Part shown: positions 7,360 to 57,835 of the stretch, piece after piece
How the letters are laid out: each line of letters begins with the position of its first letter
Position numbering within the stretch: position 1 is the stretch's first letter
Assembly: GCA_045593265.1 (NCBI GenBank)
Contig: JAZNWH010000129.1
Location: 4,646 to 68,645, forward strand
Direction: 5' to 3'
DNA from: Clostridia bacterium
Lineage (GTDB): Bacteria; Bacillota; Clostridia; RGIG6154
Length of the DNA: 64,000 bases
The notes under the pieces: model-generated
Databases searched by the model: none
What the model saw: the letters and a program-made list of their open reading frames with translations, nothing else
What the model was told of the DNA's origin: nothing
Program-made: the position numbers and the translations under genes

Positions 7360-7674
7360 TTTACTTCGTAAAATCGATATGTTTTCCCTTCGGTCAAACT
7401 TGATATGATATGAATTCTCGTTGCGTCAGCAACATATCGAGCCGTCAGGCATATCGAGTGCGAAGCACATATCGAGAATTCGCAAGAATTCATATCGCTG
7501 CGGTGCTGTGCACCGCATATAAAGACTGTTTAATTTAGATGCCAGTCTATTTAAATGAATTGACAATCTTGTTGTCATAAATTGGCTTCGCCATGATTTC
7601 TTGCTTCGCTCCATGAATTGAATTACCTTTTTAATGCACGAAGTGCAATTCATTGAGTTTACTTTGCAAACTCA
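7360..7674. repeat. Arrays of short hairpins joined by conserved linkers (ATATCGA; ATGAATTG)
   Basis: Five consecutive hairpins at 7420-7517 separated by ATATCG(A); a second array at 7555-7655. Confidence 0.75.
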
Positions 7675-8465
7675 TTATATAATACTTTAGAAATCGTGTC
7701 AACAAAAAGAACCAAAGCCGAATTACCCGACTTTAGTTCTGAATTTTTTAAAGTTTCAAAATATTCTATTATTCCCTGATACAAAGCATCGGCAATTTTC
7801 AACTGATATTCTTTAGTTTTCAGTAACTGCGATTCTTCATAATTGGACAAAAAGCCACATTCGGCAATTACTCCCGGTATATTAAGATTCTCAAATAAAA
7901 GCTTTTTAGAATCAAGTTTCTTTGCAAATCTGTTATTGGAATTATCCACATTCTCTATAACGGATTTTTGCAAAGTTTCCGCCAACACTTTACTTTCAGG
8001 AAATGTTTCGTTATAAAACATTTGTGCTCCCTTATACTGAGACTGTGAAAAATAGTTAAGATGTATGCTGATTAACAAATCGGCATCTGAATTATTAGCA
8101 ATATTTCTTCTGTTTATTAAATCTGAACGTTTTTTATTTTTCACAGAATCATTGTCATTGCTATGTAAAGATACGTCTTTTTCACGGGTCATAATTACCT
8201 TTGCCCCTGATTTTCCAAGTGCATTCTCAAGGTATTTTGCGATAGACAGATTTATATTTTTTTCTACAGTACCATCCTTTGCTACTGCTCCCCCATCAAG
8301 TCCGCCATGTCCTGCATCAATAACTATAGTTTTACCGTTAAGAGGCAAGGTTGCACTGTAGGTTTCATTACAAATAAGGCTTGTGGATATAAAAATGGTA
8401 CAAAGCAACATAAACGCTGACAGTATATATACATAATTAAATTTGATATAAATAATAATCACCAT
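7659..8465 (-). CDS. N-acetylmuramoyl-L-alanine amidase (Amidase_3, CwlD-like)
   Basis: IDAGHGG, EKNINL, SIHLN, AECGFLSN; N-terminal TM segment. Confidence 0.85.
   Translation of the reverse strand: MVIIIYIKFNYVYILSAFMLLCTIFISTSLICNETYSATLPLNGKTIVIDAGHGGLDGGAVAKDGTVEKNINLSIAKYLENALGKSGAKVIMTREKDVSLHSNDNDSVKNKKRSDLINRRNIANNSDADLLISIHLNYFSQSQYKGAQMFYNETFPESKVLAETLQKSVIENVDNSNNRFAKKLDSKKLLFENLNIPGVIAECGFLSNYEESQLLKTKEYQLKIADALYQGIIEYFETLKNSELKSGNSALVLFVDTISKVLYNEFAK
7674..7702 (-). promoter_or_regulatory. Consensus sigma-A promoter within the 3' end of the amidase ORF
   Basis: TTGACA-17 nt-TATAAT. Confidence 0.65.
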
Positions 8466-48361: not shown

Positions 48362-48391
48362 AAAAAAACGGTTGGTCATCCAACCGTTTTT
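48362..48391. terminator. Bidirectional terminator
   Basis: AAAAAACGGTTGG-tcat-CCAACCGTTTTTT. Confidence 0.75.
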
Positions 48392-49539
48392 TGATTTATT
48401 TCCGTTACTATATCTACTACCTTTGAAAGAATGTTTTCCATATCGTTAAGCCTATTTGCAATTTGTAAGAGTATTTGAGAGGTGTTATCATTTTCTATTG
48501 CTCTTTTGATACTTTTAATCTCCTCTGAAACACTTTTTGTTTCATTTTTGGTTACTCCTGCAAACTTTTCTATATTGTTATCATCTTCTGTATTATGTAA
48601 TTTTCTGCGATAATTGAGATAATCATTTTCTTTGCCAAACAACCTCTTATATTCGTTTCCTTTTTTAAATGCATAGGTGTAAATGTAGTTACTATCATTA
48701 AAATCAAAGTCCTTTTGACCTGATATTTTTACGAGCATATATTTTTCAAAACCATCACAATGAAGATAATTTACATTATCCCACCTCTCATCCTTAAATT
48801 TACTTGCCAGTAATTTACCATAATACTCAAACACACAAACGACACTTTCTTCGTTATTTAGAAGACAACACTGAACCGACTTTGACAAAGACGATGCAAC
48901 CACAGCTGAATCAACTATAACTTTATATGTATTTGAATTTTTGACACAACAGGCAATATGTTTATTATTTCCTTTATCCAGACACATACTTATATGGTAG
49001 ACCTTTTCTTCAAGTGTCATAATTCTTTCTCTGCTTTCCCATCTTTTGGACTTCCACACATATACTGCTGTTTGCAGTGTTTCTCCATTGGTATATGCTA
49101 TATGTATATTTCGTTTTTCATCTTTAACAATACAAAAATTTATTTCGTTTTCACTTTCGCATATAACATCGGGATTTGTTCTGCTACCAAATATTTGATG
49201 AACAAGCAGGTATTTTTCATTATGTTTTAAAACATAAAATCCACAAAGCCAATTGTTGTTGCTTATCAATGTTATATTGTGATTATAATTTTCATTTTTA
49301 GTTGATTCTAAAACACATTCTCTGTCCCATATTCCATTATATGCTGACACATAAAGATTTCCTTTGGTTTGTGTCATTACATACAACACACCATTTTCGC
49401 TTACAGCAACATCAAAATCATCCATATCACATTCACAGACTGTTTCACATATTTGCCTATCAGGTCTATAACACTTAAGAGCCCCATCGTCTGAAAAAAA
49501 TTCCCATATTCCATTGGTATCATAAACAAGTTTTTTCAT
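48376..49539 (-). CDS. Hypothetical protein (beta-rich repeats, C-terminal coiled coil), possibly sporulation-specific
   Basis: 387-aa ORF with GGAGG RBS; sigma-E-like promoter upstream. Confidence 0.7.
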   Translation of the reverse strand: MKKLVYDTNGIWEFFSDDGALKCYRPDRQICETVCECDMDDFDVAVSENGVLYVMTQTKGNLYVSAYNGIWDRECVLESTKNENYNHNITLISNNNWLCGFYVLKHNEKYLLVHQIFGSRTNPDVICESENEINFCIVKDEKRNIHIAYTNGETLQTAVYVWKSKRWESRERIMTLEEKVYHISMCLDKGNNKHIACCVKNSNTYKVIVDSAVVASSLSKSVQCCLLNNEESVVCVFEYYGKLLASKFKDERWDNVNYLHCDGFEKYMLVKISGQKDFDFNDSNYIYTYAFKKGNEYKRLFGKENDYLNYRRKLHNTEDDNNIEKFAGVTKNETKSVSEEIKSIKRAIENDNTSQILLQIANRLNDMENILSKVVDIVTEINQKTVG

Positions 49540-49593: not shown

Positions 49594-49620
49594 AACATTT
49601 TATAAAACTCAACATAGTAT
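49594..49620 (+). promoter_or_regulatory. Sigma-K-like promoter of the split gene
   Basis: AC (49595-49596)-16 nt-CATAGTAT. Confidence 0.45.
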
Positions 49621-49656
49621 GTATTGGGTGAAGCAATATTTCAAGGAGGTAAAAAT

Positions 49657-49871
49657 ATGAACAGAGAGGTTACTCCCGGTCCTATCACTAATGGAGGAAA
49701 CTGTATTAAGGAAGCAGTGTGTATACACACAGATAAAGTTTATGATTCCTGCAGAGATAAAGAGTGTCTTCAGGATTTAAGAGTTTATTTTACAGTTCCT
49801 GATCAGGCTATTATCGATGCCTCATCAAGTGTAAAAATCACAAACGCAGAAGTTTTATGGGTATACACAGA
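49657..49871 (+). CDS. 5' segment of the interrupted Cys-rich putative spore coat/exosporium gene
   Basis: AAGGAGGT RBS; MNREV...EAVCIHTDKVYDSCRDKEC...WVYT; joins in frame to 57171-57783. Confidence 0.85.
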
Positions 49872-49881
49872 GGTGTATCTT
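49863..49881 (+). other. attL recombination site
   Basis: ATACACAGA core (49863-49871) followed by the GGTGTATCTTT arm. Confidence 0.85.
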
Positions 49882-49899
49882 TTTACCAACTCTTTATCA

Positions 49900-49928
49900 T
49901 TGACAAAAACATTTTAGAGTGCTATAAT
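49900..49928 (+). promoter_or_regulatory. Perfect sigma-A promoter with extended -10 for the capD-cpsD-cpsB operon
   Basis: TTGACA-17 nt (ending TGc)-TATAAT. Confidence 0.8.
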
Positions 49929-49968
49929 TAAGGGTGAATATATAAAAAAATTAATATGCGGTGGTATT

Positions 49969-51846
49969 ATGAAAAATTTAAAACTGAACAAATATACTTT
50001 GCTATTTTCGTTCACAGATATTTTAACAATTGCTTGTGCTTTTTTTTGTGGTTTCTTACTATTAAATCCTTTGGGCGCTTTTTCGGAAAATGAACTATAC
50101 ACTCTATGTCAATATATACTTATAACAGCATTTGTCAACATGTTGTCATTGTTATTTTCGGGAACTTACAATAAAGTATGGACTAAAGCTACCATTGTTG
50201 ATTATTTCCAGACCGTTTTCTTAGTTTCTTTCAATTTTATATTTTCATATATAATCGCAATTATTGCAAATTCACATCATGTTTCGATCAAGCTTTACAT
50301 AGTTTCGGCTTTCCTTACCTGTATGCTTGTTTTTGTTTCCCGAACATCTGTAAGATTTTTATCATATTACCAGCATTATTTAATTTTAAAATCAAAACAC
50401 AATAAGCAAAAGAAAGTGCTGATAGTAGGAGCAGGCTCTGCAGCAAAAATGCTCCTTGAAGATATACTTCTTAACAATCCTCTTAGTTATAACATAGCCG
50501 GCTTTGTTGATGATAACACAGAAAAAGTGGGCAGTTATCTTATGGGATACCGTGTATTGGGTACAAGAGACGACATTCCTAAAATATGTGAAAAAGACAA
50601 TATTGATACAATAATAATTGCAATTCCTTCCGCTTCCAAAAAAGAGATATCAAGAATTTTAGAATACTGTTCAAAAACAGATTGCAATGTTAAAATGGTT
50701 CCTGGTATCGGGGAGCTTATAAGTGTCAATGATGTGGGAATTTTCAAGCAGACAAGAAACATTCAGTTTGACGACCTTCTTTCCCGCGAACCTGTATCTC
50801 TTAACAACAAAGAAATATCAAACATACTTAAAGATAACGTCGTTATGGTTACCGGCGGAGGCGGATCTATCGGAAGTGAGCTTTGCAAACAGATTGCAAA
50901 ATTTGCTCCCTCAAAACTTATAATTGTTGACATTTATGAAAACACAACTTATGACACACAAATTGAACTTAAAAAATCTTTTCCGAATCTTGAACTTGAA
51001 GTTATCATTGCATCCATAAAAGATGAGGAAAGAATGGAGAATATTTTTGATAAATACAGACCCGATATTGTTTACCATGCAGCAGCACACAAGCATGTAC
51101 CTCTGATGGAAGACAGTCCCGGCGAAGCTGTTGAAAATAATATTTTCGGTACATACATTGTTGCAAAATGTGCTGATAAATTTGAAGTTAAAAAATTCAT
51201 TATGGTTTCTACAGACAAAGCTGTTAACCCTACAAATGTTATGGGTGCAACAAAACGTTTCTGCGAGATGATTGTACAGTCAATGAATACTGTAAGTAAG
51301 ACAACCTATTCCTGTGTGCGTTTTGGCAATGTCCTCGGAAGCCACGGTTCAGTTATACCACTATTCAAAAAACAAATCGAACAAGGTGGCCCCGTTACTG
51401 TTACACATAAAGATATTACAAGATTTTTTATGACAATTCCTGAAGCAGCTCAGCTAATACTCCAGGCATCATCTTACGCTAAAAGTGGTGAAATTTTTGT
51501 TCTTGATATGGGTGAACCGGTTAAAATATATGACCTGGCAGTTAAATATATTAAGCTTTCCGGCTACAAACCCGGCATTGATATTGATATTGATATCGTG
51601 GGACTTCGTCCTGGAGAAAAGCTTTATGAAGAACTGTTAATGGATGAAGAAGGACTTACAAATACTTCTAACGAAAGTATCTTTATAGGAAAAACTACAG
51701 CAATTGACTTGAACGTTATCAAAACTCATCTTAAACATCTTTCAACAGTAGTTAACTCCAAAAACAATGATGAGATTATAAGTGCCCTTCATGATGCTGT
51801 TCCTACTTTTGTATCTGCGGATGACTACAATTGCATAAAATCATAA
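49969..51846 (+). CDS. Polysaccharide biosynthesis nucleotide-sugar dehydratase (CapD/PglF/EpsC family)
   Basis: 4 TM; VTGGGGSIGSEL, HAAAHKHVP, STDKAVNP, RFGNVLGS, GLRPGEKLYEEL. Confidence 0.93.
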   Translation: MKNLKLNKYTLLFSFTDILTIACAFFCGFLLLNPLGAFSENELYTLCQYILITAFVNMLSLLFSGTYNKVWTKATIVDYFQTVFLVSFNFIFSYIIAIIANSHHVSIKLYIVSAFLTCMLVFVSRTSVRFLSYYQHYLILKSKHNKQKKVLIVGAGSAAKMLLEDILLNNPLSYNIAGFVDDNTEKVGSYLMGYRVLGTRDDIPKICEKDNIDTIIIAIPSASKKEISRILEYCSKTDCNVKMVPGIGELISVNDVGIFKQTRNIQFDDLLSREPVSLNNKEISNILKDNVVMVTGGGGSIGSELCKQIAKFAPSKLIIVDIYENTTYDTQIELKKSFPNLELEVIIASIKDEERMENIFDKYRPDIVYHAAAHKHVPLMEDSPGEAVENNIFGTYIVAKCADKFEVKKFIMVSTDKAVNPTNVMGATKRFCEMIVQSMNTVSKTTYSCVRFGNVLGSHGSVIPLFKKQIEQGGPVTVTHKDITRFFMTIPEAAQLILQASSYAKSGEIFVLDMGEPVKIYDLAVKYIKLSGYKPGIDIDIDIVGLRPGEKLYEELLMDEEGLTNTSNESIFIGKTTAIDLNVIKTHLKHLSTVVNSKNNDEIISALHDAVPTFVSADDYNCIKS

Positions 51847-51896
51847 TCATTATATAGAAATTAAAATTCAATATATATTTTGAAAGGATTACTTAA

Positions 51897-52772
51897 ATGA
51901 AATTTTTACAAAAAAACAAAAACAAAGATAAAGCAAATGACAACAAGAATTACAAATATAATATTATTACAGACAATTCTCCTTTTTACATCAAGGAAGC
52001 CTATAAATCTTTGAGAACAAACATAATGTTCACTCTTGAAAACGAAACTTCAAAAGTAATTCTTATTACAAGCTCTATGGCCAAAGAAGGTAAATCAACT
52101 GTTTCAATCAACACTGCTATTACATTTGCCCAAACAGGCAGCAAAGTAATTCTTATTGATTGCGATTTAAGAAAACCTAAAATACACAGATATATGGATT
52201 TGCAAAATCAAAATGGTCTTTCTAATCTTCTAGGTGGATTTGCCAGCCTTGACGATGTAATCAGCCATACAAAATATGGATTTGACTGTATTACCTGTGG
52301 GCACATCCCACCAAACCCATCGGAATTACTTTCCTCAAATAAAATGGCAGACTTATTAGTTAAGCTTCGTGAGAAATATGATTACATCTTACTGGATACT
52401 CCTCCTGTGAATGTGGTTACCGATACCTGTGCAATCGGCAAGTTAGTAGATGGCGCGATTTTCGTTGTTAAGCACAACACCACAATGAATACAGACGTGG
52501 ATGCAGCTATTGCTGCACTTGAATTTTCAGAAACAAAAATACTTGGTTTTGTTTTCAACTCCTCTCCTACTGCAGGCGTTTTAGGATATCAAAAACGTGT
52601 TGGATACAGAAAATACTATTCATACAGAAAATATGGATATTCAAAAGGAAAATACGGATACTACAACAGCTACAAAAATTATGGTGGATACGGATATGGT
52701 TATTCTCCATCATCTTCAAAAACAGCGAATAACGAATCATCAAAAGATACAAATTCAGAAAATAAACAGTAA
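51897..52772 (+). CDS. BY-kinase, CpsD/CapB family tyrosine kinase
   Basis: EAYKSLRTN, EGKST, IDCDLRKP, LDTPP; C-terminal Tyr cluster. Confidence 0.93.
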   Translation: MKFLQKNKNKDKANDNKNYKYNIITDNSPFYIKEAYKSLRTNIMFTLENETSKVILITSSMAKEGKSTVSINTAITFAQTGSKVILIDCDLRKPKIHRYMDLQNQNGLSNLLGGFASLDDVISHTKYGFDCITCGHIPPNPSELLSSNKMADLLVKLREKYDYILLDTPPVNVVTDTCAIGKLVDGAIFVVKHNTTMNTDVDAAIAALEFSETKILGFVFNSSPTAGVLGYQKRVGYRKYYSYRKYGYSKGKYGYYNSYKNYGGYGYGYSPSSSKTANNESSKDTNSENKQ

Positions 52773-52844
52773 CCGAAACAACCACAACACTGAAGATGCC
52801 TTTAGTATTTGTGGCTTCGGCTGAGTTATCAGAAAGGTTAATTT

Positions 52845-53573
52845 ATGAATAATAATTTATGCATATGTGATTTTCATTCACATATACTCCCCTCTATTGA
52901 TGACGGTGCGAAAGATACATCTATGGCTGTAACTCTTCTGAAAGAAGAAATAGAACAAGGAGTAAAGCATCTTTGCCTTACTCCTCATTTTTATTCTAAT
53001 GAAAACGTTGAGTCATTCATAAAAAAACGCAACCTCTCGTTTCTTAAACTAAAAGAACAAATATATAAAGAAAACATCAAAAACGTACCTAATATGCATT
53101 TAGGGGCTGAAGTTGCTTTAAACTATACTACACCGGAAATACCTGATTTAAACAAGCTTTGTTTAGGCGATACGGAATTACTGCTTTTGGAAATGCCTGA
53201 CACATTTTGGGGAGATTGGATACCTGAGGTTTTGTACAGAATTTCAGCAGAAAAATCATTAACACCAATAATCGCCCATGCAGACAGATATATTGATAAT
53301 AAGAATTCCATAAAAATACTACAAAAACTGATAGATATGGATATTATTATGCAATTTAATTCGTACAATCTTACACATCCCAAGGTTGTCGGACTTATAA
53401 AGAAAATTCTTGCAAGAAATGTAAACACCCCATTGATTGGCAGTGATGCCCATAACACCAAATATCGTTCTGTTACAATCAAAAAAGTTAGTTCCCCACT
53501 GCATAAAATTCTATATGGTAAAAATTTCATAAATAATATAAATACATTTACAGAAAGTATTTTAATAAAATAA
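52845..53573 (+). CDS. PHP-type tyrosine phosphatase, CpsB/CapC family
   Basis: DFHSHILPSIDDGA, TPHF, IAHADRY, GSDAHN. Confidence 0.92.
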   Translation: MNNNLCICDFHSHILPSIDDGAKDTSMAVTLLKEEIEQGVKHLCLTPHFYSNENVESFIKKRNLSFLKLKEQIYKENIKNVPNMHLGAEVALNYTTPEIPDLNKLCLGDTELLLLEMPDTFWGDWIPEVLYRISAEKSLTPIIAHADRYIDNKNSIKILQKLIDMDIIMQFNSYNLTHPKVVGLIKKILARNVNTPLIGSDAHNTKYRSVTIKKVSSPLHKILYGKNFINNINTFTESILIK

Positions 53574-53600
53574 AACCTCTCATACGAGAGGTTTTATTTT
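53567..53600. terminator. Bidirectional terminator between the two convergent cargo units
   Basis: AAAATAAAACCTCTC-atac-GAGAGGTTTTATTTT. Confidence 0.8.
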
Positions 53601-54318
53601 ATGCTGTCGTTTTCTTTGGATTTTGTTCCTCATTTTCAAAAATCGGAAGCTCCGCAAGTACAGGATAATTAAATTTTTCTCTTAATGATACCGTATCTTT
53701 AATTCTGTCATCGAAAAGTTCTATCATAATCACAAGTGCAGCACCTATAACAAATCCTAACATAGACAAAACAGTTGCATTTCTTTTTGTATTTGGTGCT
53801 GATGTAGAACGTGGTATTTCAGGATGGTCTATAATCTTTACATTACCACCTGTAACAACTCTCGCAACCTCACTCTGGGCATTATTAAGTACAGTTTCAA
53901 CGATAATTGCCGCATGCTCAGGATTAGGATGTGTACAGCTTACAGAAATAATTTCTGTATCACCTTTTGCTGATACCGAAACAAAGGATGCCAACTGTCT
54001 GAAATTATAGTCAAGTCCTGTTTCTGCGCTAACACTCTTGAAAAATGTATTACTTGAAAGTATCTGTACATAATTCTTTACAAGCTCACGGGCATATATT
54101 ATATCTGAATACTCACCTTTCTTGGTCATATAATTACTGTTATCAGCAGTTATATATACGGACCCTCTTGCAGTATACACAGGTGTTACCATTAATTTTG
54201 TATACGCAACCGAACCTATAAAGAAAACTATTGTAAAAATAGCAACTACCCACCAACGATTTAATACCATTACTACTAAATCCCATACACTGATTTGTTC
54301 TCTGTTCAAAACTCTCAC
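53599..54318 (-). CDS. CpsC/CapA (Wzz-like) polysaccharide co-polymerase / BY-kinase activator
   Basis: Two TM; TPVYTA, DDRIKD..., PVLAELP. Confidence 0.88.
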   Translation of the reverse strand: MRVLNREQISVWDLVVMVLNRWWVVAIFTIVFFIGSVAYTKLMVTPVYTARGSVYITADNSNYMTKKGEYSDIIYARELVKNYVQILSSNTFFKSVSAETGLDYNFRQLASFVSVSAKGDTEIISVSCTHPNPEHAAIIVETVLNNAQSEVARVVTGGNVKIIDHPEIPRSTSAPNTKRNATVLSMLGFVIGAALVIMIELFDDRIKDTVSLREKFNYPVLAELPIFENEEQNPKKTTA

Positions 54319-54350
54319 CTCATTGTAAATGTTATCTAAAACTATAATTA

Positions 54351-55214
54351 TTAATCAAGAGACAATATATCTTTAACTGCGTATACCGCTTCTTTACTGA
54401 TAGTACATTTCATCAAATAAACTTTCGCAACATCAATCAGCTTTTTTAAATCATCAATAAAAATACTAACCATATGTTCCAATACAGGTTTATTAATTTC
54501 ATTATATAGCCTGAAAAATGCTGTAACACCATCAATCTGAGATATTTCCACACTGCTATGCTGTTCAATACAAATTATTCCTGCAAGTCTTGACTTTATA
54601 TTGTTATTTATAAAATGCTTGCCTGACCACGGTGTTCCGTAAACATATACTTCTCCATCTGTTATTCTCATAACAGGATTATCATCATTGATATAAACAA
54701 CATCCTCTAAGTGTTGTTTCCACAAAGATGTCTGTGTAGACTTTCCCGTTCCTGATGGTGCAGAAAACAAGATAGCATTTCCTTTATATGAAATAGCGGA
54801 GGCGTGAATAACATACGCATGATGCATCATCAACATATAATAAAAGGCCTGTCCAACTAATCCAAATAACTTTAAATCAATTGACGGCCCACCTATCAAA
54901 GATGTATCCTTAGCACAGATATCTGCACGATTAAAATCCTTATTCCATGTTATTTTCGCAAGGCACAAGTCGTAGCTTTGAGAATAAGTATATGCATATA
55001 CAGAACCATCAGCATTATCAATGTGCCATGAAAAACGCCCTGCACCTACAACATCTTCGTCAAAACGTTCAAGTTCAATTTCATCCTGCACTTTATAAGT
55101 AATAACCATATCTGCACCCGAAAACGGCATTTCATACTCTTTTAACTTTTCAGACAGAAAAGCATTAGAGTTGCCTGTTATTTCAAGCTTATATCCTGCA
55201 ATTAAATACTTCAC
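54351..55214 (-). CDS. HPr-kinase-like P-loop protein (RiPP/lasso-peptide kinase-like)
   Basis: IHASAI, SAPSGTGKST, INDD, YGTPWSGK. Confidence 0.75.
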   Translation of the reverse strand: MKYLIAGYKLEITGNSNAFLSEKLKEYEMPFSGADMVITYKVQDEIELERFDEDVVGAGRFSWHIDNADGSVYAYTYSQSYDLCLAKITWNKDFNRADICAKDTSLIGGPSIDLKLFGLVGQAFYYMLMMHHAYVIHASAISYKGNAILFSAPSGTGKSTQTSLWKQHLEDVVYINDDNPVMRITDGEVYVYGTPWSGKHFINNNIKSRLAGIICIEQHSSVEISQIDGVTAFFRLYNEINKPVLEHMVSIFIDDLKKLIDVAKVYLMKCTISKEAVYAVKDILSLD

Positions 55215-55216
55215 TT

Positions 55217-55399
55217 TTATGTATTTGTGTTGCTTGTTCCATAAGCTTCCAACAAACCAATTTCATTATCTGTAACAAGACCAGAATCGCTATATCCATC
55301 AGATTGCGAATCAGAAACAGAGTCCGGAACCAATGCAGTAACGGTTTCTTTAACCTGTAATTCAACTATATTCAAAATTGGCTTTTCATATTTAATCAT
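55217..55399 (-). CDS. Putative RiPP precursor peptide (60 aa)
   Basis: GGAGG RBS; leader KYEKPIL (YxxPxL); Ser/Asp-rich C-terminal half; lies between PqqD and the kinase. Confidence 0.65.
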   Translation of the reverse strand: MIKYEKPILNIVELQVKETVTALVPDSVSDSQSDGYSDSGLVTDNEIGLLEAYGTSNTNT

Positions 55400-55499
55400 A
55401 TACTAAACCTCCAATACCAACTTCATTCATTAATAACTAACATCCATACTTTGCATTTTCTTCTGACAAAGCACATAAAAACACTAATTTTACTCCTAT

Positions 55500-55528
55500 A
55501 TTATATACCAAATTCTCTTAAAAGTCAA
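55500..55528 (-). promoter_or_regulatory. Sigma-A promoter of the peptide-kinase unit
   Basis: TTGACT-17 nt-TATAAT. Confidence 0.7.
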
Positions 55529-55547
55529 TAGAATAAAATGTAAATCA

Positions 55548-55826
55548 TCAATTTTCCAATAAGTTTTGACTTGCAAGCTTAAAAACAAATTCATTGACAT
55601 CATTATCGGCACATTCAACATCAATTTCAAATGCTTCTGCAAATTTGCTTACCAATTCGCTATATTCTGTTCCTTCATCAAGTTGTTGCCATATCCATGC
55701 ACCTGTTTCATTTGTTGTAAGCATCTTTTTGAAGTCTACTATATTTTTCCCAGTTGGCACCACTATATAATCTCCTGCTATGTTCTTTAAAACAAAGCCG
55801 CTTTTGTGTTTAAGAAATTTTCTCAT
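55548..55826 (-). CDS. PqqD-family protein (stand-alone RiPP recognition element)
   Basis: FVLKNIAGDYIVVP, NETGAWIWQQL, DVNEFV..L...NLL. Confidence 0.88.
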   Translation of the reverse strand: MRKFLKHKSGFVLKNIAGDYIVVPTGKNIVDFKKMLTTNETGAWIWQQLDEGTEYSELVSKFAEAFEIDVECADNDVNEFVFKLASQNLLEN

Positions 55827-55861
55827 ATAATTATCTTCTTCCTTTAATTAGCTTTACGTTA

Positions 55862-55890
55862 ATTATATCATTTTTTTTTGAATTAATCAA
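55862..55890 (-). promoter_or_regulatory. Sigma-A promoter of the PqqD gene, with an A9 tract in the spacer
   Basis: TTGATT-17 nt (ending TGa)-TATAAT. Confidence 0.55.
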
Positions 55891-57019
55891 CATCTTTCCA
55901 AAATACCGTAATGTCTTTACTGCTTAAAACAATTCTTTTCACAAGATTTTGAATTACAAAAAAATCCAGGTATTTATTATCTTTTTCTAAGCGTAATTTC
56001 TTTAGTATAATTTGAATAATTTTATTTTCTGATACATTATTACGACAATCTACACATATAATCTTTTGGTTTTTTCTTATACATTTTCCACCACATTCAC
56101 ATTTCAGCAAACCACTTAAAGGATTCATCAACCCGTTTTTATCACTTCTATGACCATTTTTTATTTTTTCCTGAGTAAATGCATATATTTGTGGGTCGAT
56201 TATTCTCTTATGAGTATTTTTTACACATATCCATTCATTTTCAGGAACAGATATTCTTTTTTTGCTTTTATAGCTTAATTTATTTTTCCTGTTTTGAACC
56301 AGGTTTCCGCAGTAAACAGGATTTGTCAAAATATCCTTAACTGTTCCCCCTGTCCAGTTATAGCCTTGTTTTTTCTCTCTGTAATTCATAGGAGAAACAA
56401 TTTTTTCTTTATTTAATATCTGGGCAATTTTAGATGTTCCGAAACCAAAATTATATAACCAGAATATAATCCTTACTGTCTGTTCTGTTTTGGCATCCTT
56501 AATCAGTTGATTTTTATTTTCAGGGTTTTTCATATATCCATAAGGTGCAAAAGCAAACAAACACTCCCCTTTTCTCATCTTATCCTTGAACACCGCTCTT
56601 ATATTTTCTGACAAATCCTCAAGGTACCATTCGTTTATAAGTGAATTAATCTGTCTTGTTTTTTTGTTGTTTTTATCATATGAATCAGTATTGTCAACTA
56701 CAGATATAAACCGTATACCCAGCTCAAGAAATTTGTTGTTAATAAATTTATCTATTATACTGATATCTCTTGAAAATCTTGACATCGTTTTACATATTAC
56801 TGTATCAAAACATTTATTTTCTGCATCTTTAAGCATTCTGTTAAACTCAGGCCGTTCTGCATTTATTCCCGAATAATCCTCATCTACATATATATTGTAT
56901 ATATCGTAGCAGTTATCTATACAGTAATTTATCAACATACTTTTTTGATTTAAAATGCTTTCACTTTCATCGCCGGTTTCATCTTCTTTTGATATTCTGC
57001 AATATAATGCCGCTTTTAT
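55883..57019 (-). CDS. Large-serine-recombinase family protein (378 aa from an ATA start; SpoIVCA/TndX-like)
   Basis: Frame extends upstream of the called ORF to IKAALYCRISKED (catalytic Ser); also DEDYSG...RP, SRFSRD, APYGY, ILTNPVYCG and a Zn ribbon CECG/CVDC. Confidence 0.9.
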   Translation of the reverse strand: MKAALYCRISKEDETGDESESILNQKSMLINYCIDNCYDIYNIYVDEDYSGINAERPEFNRMLKDAENKCFDTVICKTMSRFSRDISIIDKFINNKFLELGIRFISVVDNTDSYDKNNKKTRQINSLINEWYLEDLSENIRAVFKDKMRKGECLFAFAPYGYMKNPENKNQLIKDAKTEQTVRIIFWLYNFGFGTSKIAQILNKEKIVSPMNYREKKQGYNWTGGTVKDILTNPVYCGNLVQNRKNKLSYKSKKRISVPENEWICVKNTHKRIIDPQIYAFTQEKIKNGHRSDKNGLMNPLSGLLKCECGGKCIRKNQKIICVDCRNNVSENKIIQIILKKLRLEKDNKYLDFFVIQNLVKRIVLSSKDITVFWKDVD

Positions 57020-57110
57020 CTTTATTCACTCCTTCATGATAATATTTTTCGATAAATTTTATTAGTTCTTCAATCTTTGCTTTGTTAAAATTTTTATGAA
57101 TTACTTTCAT
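56979..57110 (-). CDS. 43-aa ORF overlapping the recombinase start (candidate directionality factor or translational-coupling leader)
   Basis: GGTGG RBS; MKVIHKNFNKAKIEELIKFIEKYYHEGVNKDKSGIILQNIKRR*. Confidence 0.45.
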   Translation of the reverse strand: MKVIHKNFNKAKIEELIKFIEKYYHEGVNKDKSGIILQNIKRR

Positions 57111-57157
57111 TCAACCACCAATTAATTATATTGCTGATGCAAAGCGAAAAGAACAAC

Positions 57158-57174
57158 AAAGATACACAGATGTG
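57158..57174 (+). other. attR recombination site
   Basis: AAAGATACAC arm + AGA (core ATACACAGA at 57162-57170) followed by TGTG. Confidence 0.85.
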
Positions 57175-57783
57175 GAACCCGTTCAGTTCAATCAGGGCTA
57201 CTATACTGTTGATATAAGATTCTATTTCAGAGTTACTCTTGATGTATACGCTGAACTTGGCAGACCTAAGAGAGTCGAAGGCATTGCTATTTATGACAAA
57301 AAAATTGCACTTTTCGGTTCCGAAGGCAAGTCAAAGATATTCCAGTCATCTTTCAATGAAGGTGCACCTGATAAACAGATAAGAGAAAAAAGCAATGTTC
57401 CTAAAGCTGTAGTTGAAGTAGTAGATCCTATTGCACTCAGCGCAAGAATTGCAGATAAATGTTCTGATAATTTATGTTGCGGCAATTGCGAAGTATCTTC
57501 AATACCTGAATGTATTTTAAATTGCTTCGAAGGTGCAATTTGTCCTGCAGATACAGAAAAAAGAGTTTATGTTACTTTAGGATTATTTACAATAACAAAA
57601 CTCGAAAGAAATGTACAGCTTCTCATTCCTGTATATGATTTCTGTATTCCTACTGACGAATGTGTTTCATCTTCTCCTGCTAATCCTTGCGACTTGTTCG
57701 ATCAGATTCAGTTCCCGGTTGATGAATTCTTCCCACCTCAGAAGCACGATTTCTTCGGTAACAACAATTGTGATTGTCAGTAA
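57171..57783 (+). CDS. 3' segment of the interrupted Cys-rich putative spore coat/exosporium gene
   Basis: No convincing RBS; VEPVQFNQGYY...PCDLFDQIQFPVDEFFPPQK...CDCQ*; in frame with 49657-49871 after excision. Confidence 0.85.
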
Positions 57784-57786
57784 AAG

Positions 57787-57835
57787 TATAAAAGAACATC
57801 TCCAAAAGATTTCCTTTTGGAGATGTTCTTTTATA
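57787..57835. terminator. Bidirectional terminator
   Basis: TATAAAAGAACATCTCCAAAAG...CTTTTGGAGATGTTCTTTTATA. Confidence 0.8.

Follow-up and report, generated by a model that had tools for sequence, protein, structure and literature searches.

The locus described here raises the question of why a bacterium should keep genes that control its surface polysaccharide within a gene for its spore, on a segment of DNA that can apparently be cut out. It lies in a stretch of 64,000 nucleotides (nt), hereafter the window, to which all positions refer unless another contig is named; the window falls within contig C129 of the metagenome-assembled genome (MAG) of an uncultured Clostridia bacterium (2.26 Mb in 139 contigs, 95% complete). 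An initial annotation of this DNA had taken the locus for an excisable element with capsule genes as its cargo and had suggested that its excision in the mother cell turns the capsule off while a spore-surface gene is built. When the locus is analyzed alongside related genomes, it appears that this is probably a domesticated, non-phage element of the gin/skin kind, which intervenes in a sporulation gene of the CsxA family and encloses native surface-polysaccharide genes; the reading as a capsule off-switch is weak. We refer to the genome of the window as G000 and to its one congener as G013, while G003 and G016 represent other genera of the same GTDB family, which here is also the whole order (18 species genomes, 16 of them with the csxA gene).

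A single plus-strand gene is found in two pieces between positions 49657 and 57783, of 72 and 206 codons (Table 1). When the two are aligned with seven intact homologues of 275-285 amino acids (aa), they abut end to end with an overlap of two residues (Y-T), which is the duplicated core, and the rejoined gene would consist of 49657-49871 followed directly and in frame by 57171-57783. The split point falls in a conserved W-V-x-x-D-V-E-P stretch, where the dinucleotide GA opens the nearly invariant Asp codon of the intact relatives. Scans of Pfam and NCBIfam gave no family for either half, and four intact homologues likewise had no match in that Pfam set, which was without the PF27077 model; homologues about 52-62% identical to the C-terminal half bear the precomputed label PF27077, which the protein Atlas names CsxA and which is found on 12% of one cluster. 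The joined product would be cysteine-rich and about 275 aa long, and no relative of solved structure was found for it. CsxA is described as a cysteine-rich protein of Clostridium sporogenes from which the basal lattice of the exosporium is built, and its gene there has a conserved open reading frame (ORF) transcribed divergently beside it (PMC7333573). A divergent 387-aa ORF is present here too, and its homologue adjoins csxA in 8 of the 9 family loci examined. Among 399 sampled Clostridia genomes the csxA gene was present in 181, in an all-or-none fashion by family.

Upstream of the csxA start, the block ACA-N16-CATAttATGT is kept in 10 genomes of 6 genera. We take the motif within it to be of the mother-cell sigma-K/E type; because the pattern AC-N16-CATAgtaTG is loose when used alone (65 hits per window), the weight given to this promoter rests on its conservation. 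Expression of csxA would accordingly be expected in the mother cell during sporulation, which agrees with the interrupted spore-surface gene and mother-cell-type promoter that the initial annotation had described.

The halves do not look like debris. Between G000 and G013 the 5' segment is 94% and the 3' segment 88% identical at the aa level, and the ratio of non-synonymous to synonymous substitution rates (dN/dS) is 0.033 for the N-terminal half (dS 0.92) and 0.056 for the C-terminal half (dS 1.14), next to 0.060 for the comparison gene rny. Judged by these ratios, both halves are under strong purifying selection. Only G000 and G013, among the 16 family genomes with csxA, have it split (open frames of 227 and 213 aa); the frame is 280-311 aa in 13 of the others and 246 aa in G008, and a scan of genome contigs with the C-terminal half returned the G013 record alone. 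The split would thus be old and fixed in the genus, and a gene maintained in this state bears the signature of one that is rejoined when needed, which is the strongest, though indirect, evidence for excision here. Since the split is common to two species and both halves are under purifying selection, rejoining of csxA by excision is likely.

The boundaries of the element are marked by two copies of a 9-bp core, ATACACAGA. Positions 57158-57167 are the exact reverse complement of 49873-49882, and when the element ends are joined a perfect 10-bp dyad results around a 4-nt centre, the middle dinucleotide of which is GA. G013 has a 7-of-8 dyad around the same GA, which is the only dyad-centre dinucleotide common to the left and right attachment sites (attL and attR) in both genomes, and the geometry would be that expected for the site of a serine recombinase. 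Five copies of the core 9-mer stand in the window, where the genome would lead one to expect about 1.1; the three further copies were considered as attachment sites and dropped, as their flanks are unlike those of the two sites. In G013 the element sits at the same codon with an identical gene set, and no break in GC content separates element from flanks. The initial annotation had ended the element at 54318 with four correctly named genes, but it runs to 57170, and an HprK-like gene, a 60-aa ORF, a PqqD gene, the recombinase and a 43-aa ORF have to be added to the list. Its statement that phage and conjugation genes are absent holds: Pfam, NCBIfam and PHROGs revealed no phage, conjugation or replication genes in the element other than an integrase. 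This was the family matched by the recombinase when PHROGs was run on eight element proteins, and the only match with a phage function; CapD and CpsC matched sugar-epimerase and unknown families.

Table 1. Features of the split csxA locus, in order of position in the window (strand given where it applies).
Feature	Position	Strand	Basis or remark
Divergent partner of csxA, 387-aa ORF	48376..49539	-	no Pfam family; divergent from csxA
Mother-cell-type (sigma-K/E-like) promoter motif of csxA	49595..49621	+	AC-N16-CATAgtaTG
csxA 5' segment	49657..49871	+	72 codons; aligns to residues 1-72 of intact homologues
attL core ATACACAGA	49863..49871		9 bp; crossover dinucleotide GA at 49870-49871
Intervening element, 7,299 bp	49872..57170		between the two cores; same gene content in G013
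Consensus sigma-A-type promoter of capD-cpsD-cpsB	49900..49928	+	TTGACA-17-TATAAT, TG before -10, 12 of 12
CapD-like membrane nucleotide-sugar 4,6-dehydratase	49969..51846	+	PF02719, 405 bits; N-terminal membrane/CoA_binding_3 part
CpsD, bacterial tyrosine kinase (BY-kinase)	51897..52772	+	TIGR01007, 181.5 bits vs cut-off 108
CpsB, PHP-type phosphatase	52845..53573	+	PF19567, 115 bits; HxH..DDG start
Bidirectional terminator between cpsB and cpsC	53565..53602		17-pair stem, then T run; closes both operons
CpsC (Wzz-type kinase modulator)	53599..54318	-	Wzz, 48 bits, plus GNVR
HprK-related / ScmC-like 287-aa protein	54351..55214	-	weak: TIGR04352 E 1e-4, TIGR04249 E 0.0035
60-aa ORF, possible precursor peptide	55217..55399	-	ORF; G013 47%, partial match in G003
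PqqD-family (peptide-chaperone type) protein	55548..55826	-	PF05402, 58.9 bits; lasso-type PqqD models E 2e-7
Short large-serine-type recombinase, about 378 aa, probable ATA start	55883..57019	-	Resolvase + Recombinase domains
43-aa ORF, candidate directionality factor	56979..57110	-	overlaps recombinase start; 43 aa in G013, 67% identical
attR core ATACACAGA	57162..57170		9 bp
csxA 3' segment	57163..57783	+	206 codons; aligns to residues about 70-275 of intact homologues
Terminator after csxA	57788..57834		20-pair stem

The gene for the recombinase, an enzyme of about 44 kDa, lies about 140 nt from attR, and its Recombinase domain (PF07508) scores 72.6 bits. The longest ORF that begins with ATG encodes 351 aa and is without the catalytic-serine segment (the profile is matched from position 25); this segment is supplied by the 29 codons upstream, which requires that translation starts at or before 57019. 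An ATA at 57019 corresponds to the start Met in the alignment with 521-aa relatives, and AAGGAG precedes it at a distance of 9 nt in G000 as in G013, so that it is likely the start codon, which would mean low expression. Gene callers placed the start of the relatives P0123-P0125 at an internal Met, and G013 has an ATG five codons upstream of the ATA, with a TGA between in G000. The recombinase gene overlaps the 43-aa ORF by 41 nt in a different frame (47 nt with the stop codon of the ORF; 56979-57025, minus strand), and an A-run there (AAA-A), kept in G013, would let ribosomes translating the 43-aa ORF slip by +1 into the frame of the recombinase instead of initiating at the ATA. The nearest long relatives, at no more than 52% identity, are 521 aa in length and carry PF13408 and PF14287; the clade comprising G000, G013 and P0123-P0125 is without about 125 of their residues or alignment columns, which form the coiled-coil/DUF4368 part. 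The zinc ribbon keeps its four Cys, is about 12 residues shorter than in the relatives and has no PF13408 match. Between G000 and G013 the proportion of non-synonymous differences (pN) in the recombinase is 0.22, compared with a synonymous proportion (pS) of 0.75. A metagenome scan with the recombinase kept 80 loci, the best at 48% identity, and in none of these 80 were csxA or cps genes found near the relative. Across the whole of G000 there are 14 matches to PF07508, which points to many serine-recombinase elements for a genome of 2.26 Mb.

Among 1.84 billion representatives, the 43-aa ORF has three clusters of 43-44-aa proteins, and it is conserved in five sequences in all. In structure prediction, the complex of the recombinase with the 43-aa protein scored 0.78 (runs 0.77-0.83), compared with 0.00 for the best of three controls; the mark used for this score is reached by roughly 58 of 80 solved complexes and by 2 of 110 mismatched pairs, and our own alignments were used here. 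At least 98% of contacts recur from run to run, the predicted local distance difference test (pLDDT) value of the partner is at least 76, and the predicted contacts fall on the last strand of the recombinase (370-379) and on helices 339-363. The model supports binding of the 43-aa protein to the recombinase, and we regard the protein as a candidate for the role of directionality factor, comparable to GirX of gin. The idea that the ORF is a piece split off from the longer recombinases was also considered and found no support (hhalign E 0.07, probability 0.8).

We suggest the following course of events. In the mother cell, the short serine recombinase would cut at the GA of both cores, with the 43-aa protein encoded just upstream of it probably assisting; a 7.3-kb circle would be released and csxA rejoined in frame behind its conserved mother-cell promoter, and the forespore would retain the element. 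Excision might also take place in growing cells, as phase variation or by loss of the element, and would then give rise to lineages with an intact csxA and no capsule control. The serine recombinase could presumably act outside sporulation, and no sporulation promoter was found for it. Against this, a search of 5.8 billion proteins with the C-terminal half of csxA returned, among the 120 best hits listed, three above 70% identity, all split forms of 201-203 aa (77-98% identical), and in the same 120 there was no full-length csxA (at least 275 aa) above 68%. In addition, the element holds no replication genes, so that its loss would be permanent and would cost the cell single-copy genes. We consider excision of this kind highly unlikely.

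What the element encloses was for the most part recognized correctly by the initial annotation, whose CapD-like, CpsD, CpsB and CpsC assignments are borne out by Pfam and NCBIfam matches. CpsD has P-loop motifs, which we take to be of the Walker type, and a C-terminal tail with more than 15 Tyr residues. CpsB and CpsC lie above the Pfam cut-offs and below the NCBIfam equivalog cut-offs (CpsC against TIGR01006: 108.7, under the cut-off of 296). The three plus-strand genes follow a perfect TTGACA-17-TATAAT promoter that begins 28 nt past the repeat core 49863-49871, as had been pointed out. There are two such promoters in the 64-kb window (the other at 7674-7702, minus strand) against 0.03 expected, and none of 100 shuffles reached two; G013 keeps both hexamers of the 49900 promoter with a different spacer. 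On the minus strand, a second operon runs from pqqD through the peptide ORF and the hprK-like gene to cpsC, with promoter-like sites at 55890-55862 and 55528-55500, and ends at the terminator that it shares with the plus-strand operon (53565-53602). It is apparent that both operons lie wholly inside the element, promoters and terminator included. Across the cargo genes, pN is 0.14-0.32 and pS 0.62-0.78 between G000 and G013.

The upstream part of the minus-strand operon (54351-55826), that is, the PqqD gene, the 60-aa ORF and the HprK-related/ScmC-like gene, is apparently co-transcribed with cpsC. The set resembles those for ribosomally synthesized and post-translationally modified peptides, without a recognizable maturation enzyme. 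The HprK-like protein has homologues in G013 (59%) and G003 (39-47%), and no family was found for the 60-aa ORF in NCBIfam or PHROGs.

A check for further cpsBCD copies in G000, which the initial annotation had called for, found none, and the cargo is therefore without redundancy in this assembly: there is one CpsB, one Wzz/CpsC match and one BY-kinase match over the cut-off (four other matches are MinD/ParA-like). CapD-type proteins are represented by one long copy and a 344-aa PseB-like copy on contig C80. All three initiating sugar transferases of G000 are on other contigs, and because of this the element can be said to hold the control part of polysaccharide production and not the synthesis part. 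Since the element has the sole kinase, phosphatase and modulator set of the genome, its loss from a growing cell would be costly, which would stabilize the split arrangement; the suggestion of the initial annotation that useful cargo helps the element to be retained is therefore plausible. In our proposal the enclosed genes stabilize the element rather than being switched by it, and the loss of the cps genes from the mother-cell chromosome would most likely be a by-product, both operons being complete on the circle.

The switch that the initial annotation had in mind would require more, namely that excision was selected to strip the chromosome of its only CpsBCD/CapD control module and so to shut down polysaccharide synthesis as the exosporium gene is built. 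Several observations fit this idea: the module is single-copy in G000 and is the control part only, with the initiating transferases outside the element; its consensus sigma-A-type promoter, 28 nt inside attL, is conserved in G013; and a different csxA-splitting insert in another Clostridia family also holds vegetative surface genes, two SLH proteins. However, every gene would keep its promoter and terminator on excision, and the circle should thus stay expressible; there is no sign of circle degradation, proteins made earlier would persist, and in G003, G015, G016 and G017 the same genes and promoter stand beside an intact csxA, where their removal is not needed. We give this explanation little credence. 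A broader form of it, in which the edit works both ways, is hardly better placed: excision would build the exosporium lattice gene and at the same time strip the only tyrosine-kinase polysaccharide control module of the cell from the mother-cell chromosome, with a host-recruited recombinase without a coiled coil and its 43-aa partner bracketing native genes. This is unlikely, and if true it would represent a programmed genome rearrangement owned by the host and not a tolerated parasite.

The initial annotation had recommended a comparison of the cargo across related genomes, and this comparison gives no sign of a special acquisition, as the same genes and a homologous promoter are found beside intact csxA in sister genera. 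In G003 the order is intact csxA, terminator, a TTGACT-17-TATAAT promoter with TG, cpsD and cpsB, followed on the other strand by cpsC, an SLH gene, the HprK-like gene, the peptide, two more ORFs and pqqD, with a topoisomerase IV gene at the end; the genes that G003 has in excess are one for an S24-peptidase-like protein, a 327-aa ORF and the SLH gene, and there is no recombinase at this locus. G016 has csxA, a promoter like the 49900 site, and then cpsD and cpsB, while in G015 and G017 cpsD begins within 160 nt downstream of csxA. The adjacency of csxA and cpsD recurs in three genera of the family; the distance between them is 95 kb in G005 and 41 kb in G006, and CpsB is present in 14 of the 15 family genomes sampled. 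CpsD identity is 45-54% for family members and for other families alike, and because of this it cannot prove vertical descent. From gene order, the enclosed genes are a native block of the family, which was already the neighbour of csxA with its promoter in place, and they do not appear to be imported.

Outside the family the association is largely absent. When 40 genomes of other families were surveyed at one intact csxA locus each (about 8 kb to either side, less at contig ends), none had CpsB or CpsC there; there was one weak CpsD-like hit (30%, E 3e-10) and one CapD homologue. In 27 other genomes, inspected by eye, CpsB is on a different contig or more than 400 kb from csxA. One exception to this lack of linkage came to light by chance in G298, of another family, in which cpsC and cpsD lie directly upstream of csxA. 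These results bear on a third explanation, by which the CpsBCD/CapD block is a partner of CsxA at the spore surface, where it might for instance act on a glycan of the exosporium or spore, and is not a vegetative capsule module. The recurrent csxA-cpsD adjacency, the arrangement in G298 and the CapD homologue beside csxA in one of the 40 surveyed loci (L117) would all be accounted for by such a functional linkage, and glycosyltransferase genes are reported in the csxA loci of C. sporogenes (PMC7333573). Yet CpsB and CpsC are missing from all 40 loci of other families, the cps promoter is of sigma-A consensus and not of mother-cell type, and in G003 a terminator separates csxA from cpsD. We regard a role of the block on the spore surface as unlikely.

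In L117 (G068:C8, 6471-12990) the CapD homologue, 49% identical, is the direct neighbour of csxA. Three of the 40 surveyed intact loci (L117, L135 and L137) have a serine-recombinase-like gene within about 3 kb.

The reading that we favour, a domesticated gene-intervening element that rejoins csxA by excision, has several points to contend with. The recombinase has no ATG, GTG or TTG before its catalytic serine, a TGA stands five codons upstream of the ATA in G000, and if the ATA is unused the enzyme of G000 would be dead. It also lacks the coiled-coil segment of its 521-aa relatives, on which known large serine integrases depend to pair their sites and for directionality. A search for sigma-E/K-like motifs ahead of the 43-aa ORF gave none in G000 or G013, and sporulation-specific control is purely our inference. 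The excision junction at the cores was not seen in Logan contigs of four runs from four studies, the cover of which is fragmentary at a depth of about 1-15. The only joint spanning the element there, from 49795 to 57208, is off the cores, in a single contig with 22 letters on its short side and a depth of 2.5, and falls where the two csxA halves resemble each other. The sole-copy counts refer to a 95%-complete MAG, in which an extra cps copy on unassembled DNA is possible. Finally, for a native block to have come to lie within csxA, a swap of two adjacent segments would be needed, for example by excision and re-insertion 620 bp upstream, or by duplication and loss.

Some of these points, namely the non-canonical start with the upstream TGA, the missing coiled coil and the unseen excision product, could be taken to mean that the locus is a frozen relic, in which the recombinase is dead, csxA is never rejoined, and its halves are decaying or make separate products. 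Against this stand the dN/dS of 0.03-0.06 in both csxA halves at saturated dS, and the C-terminal half has no ribosome-binding site of its own. The dyad attachment sites with their GA centre are kept in two species, the recombinase shows few non-synonymous differences for its synonymous divergence, and the ATA with its Shine-Dalgarno sequence is conserved and aligned with the Met of relatives. A relic is therefore distinctly unlikely in our view, and the domesticated element remains the more probable account.

The csxA gene is also split at a second position, at about residue 153-166, in other Clostridia families (L017, G298:C10, 406-10785; L018, L019 and L020). The insert of L017 is roughly 9.4 kb and holds two SLH surface proteins of 2176 and 605 aa and a 282-aa mini serine recombinase, which consists of Resolvase and Recombinase domains only and whose ORF abuts the C-terminal csxA piece. 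A recombinase gene stands directly before the C-terminal piece in four of the five second-position loci fetched, the contig of the fifth being too short.

Elsewhere in G000, contig C68 (18244-18591) encodes the N-terminal half of a sigK-like sigma factor (TIGR02846 positions 5-119, 150 bits). The frame comes to an end within the conserved R-C-I-(E/D)-N segment, and the next ORF is XRE/HTH-like. This gene is probably interrupted by a skin-like element; the 95%-complete assembly did not yield its C-terminal half. SpoIVA is present in G000 at 736 bits.

Among NCBIfam models, XisF is one of the best for the recombinase, at 97 bits and far below its cut-off of 375. In heterocyst-forming cyanobacteria, XisF is the serine recombinase that removes the fdxN element during the development of a terminal cell type, and the content of that element is mixed and non-phage; the phylum, cell type and target genes differ from those here. 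Compared with the capsule loci of Firmicutes, the element has all three of the CpsB, CpsC and CpsD parts with their signature features, plus a CapD-type dehydratase, but they do not head a biosynthetic locus, and cpsC is on the other strand with the PqqD/peptide/HprK-like set. The csxA gene itself shares with that of C. sporogenes a cysteine-rich product and the divergent ORF, and differs in being interrupted (PMC7333573; bioRxiv 10.64898/2026.09.03.749163). Our literature search found no paper joining 'CsxA' and 'recombinase', and the available text of the 2026 CsxA preprint (bioRxiv 10.64898/2026.09.03.749163) has no mention of 'interrupted', 'recombinase' or 'split'.

The better-known systems of this type are skin in sigK, which is excised by SpoIVCA in B. 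subtilis and by CD1231 with the recombination directionality factor CD1234 in C. difficile (PMC5025042), and SPbeta in the spore-polysaccharide gene spsM, with SprA and SprB (PMC4191935, PMC5499854). As described there, a large serine recombinase cuts the element out in the mother cell and so restores a sporulation gene, and the element stays in the germ line; we propose the same here. Skin and SPbeta are prophages or remnants of them according to these reports, whereas the element in csxA has no phage gene and carries the only BY-kinase system of the cell; it falls outside the prophage-like subclass of skin, SPbeta, vfbin and yin, whose members have phage genes. The initial annotation was right in setting it apart from the prophage-like skin elements, but a non-phage element had already been published in gin, which interrupts gerE in Bacillus cereus ATCC 10987 (PMC5595907). 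As reported for gin, it too lies inside a mother-cell sporulation gene and has a 9-bp common core, where the cut would fall at a dinucleotide central to an inverted repeat; gin encodes the serine recombinase GirC and the very small GirX (6.5 kDa; PMC5595907), which are paralleled here by the recombinase and the 43-aa ORF predicted to bind it. The two differ in target, gerE as opposed to csxA, and in the recombinase, which is 58 kDa in the case of GirC and about 44 kDa without a coiled coil here; moreover, several mobile elements are reported to make up gin, which has three recombinase genes (PMC5595907), while the element in csxA encloses native host operons and is known from sequence alone.

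The sporulation elements known to date are prophages, their remnants or composites of mobile elements, and their content is usually treated as baggage. In the present case the host's own single-copy genes for the control of surface polysaccharide make up the intervening DNA, together with a stripped-down recombinase. This suggests a route by which a programmed DNA rearrangement may become fixed: an excisable segment gains genes that the growing cell cannot lose. The targets of such elements would now include csxA, which has been hit at two positions, by different inserts, in different Clostridia families, and a very small recombinase and partner pair with defined short sites may be of interest to those who build recombinase tools. 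From the known elements, that in csxA is set apart by its target, by the native single-copy host genes inside it, and by a short recombinase that has no coiled coil and a non-canonical start.

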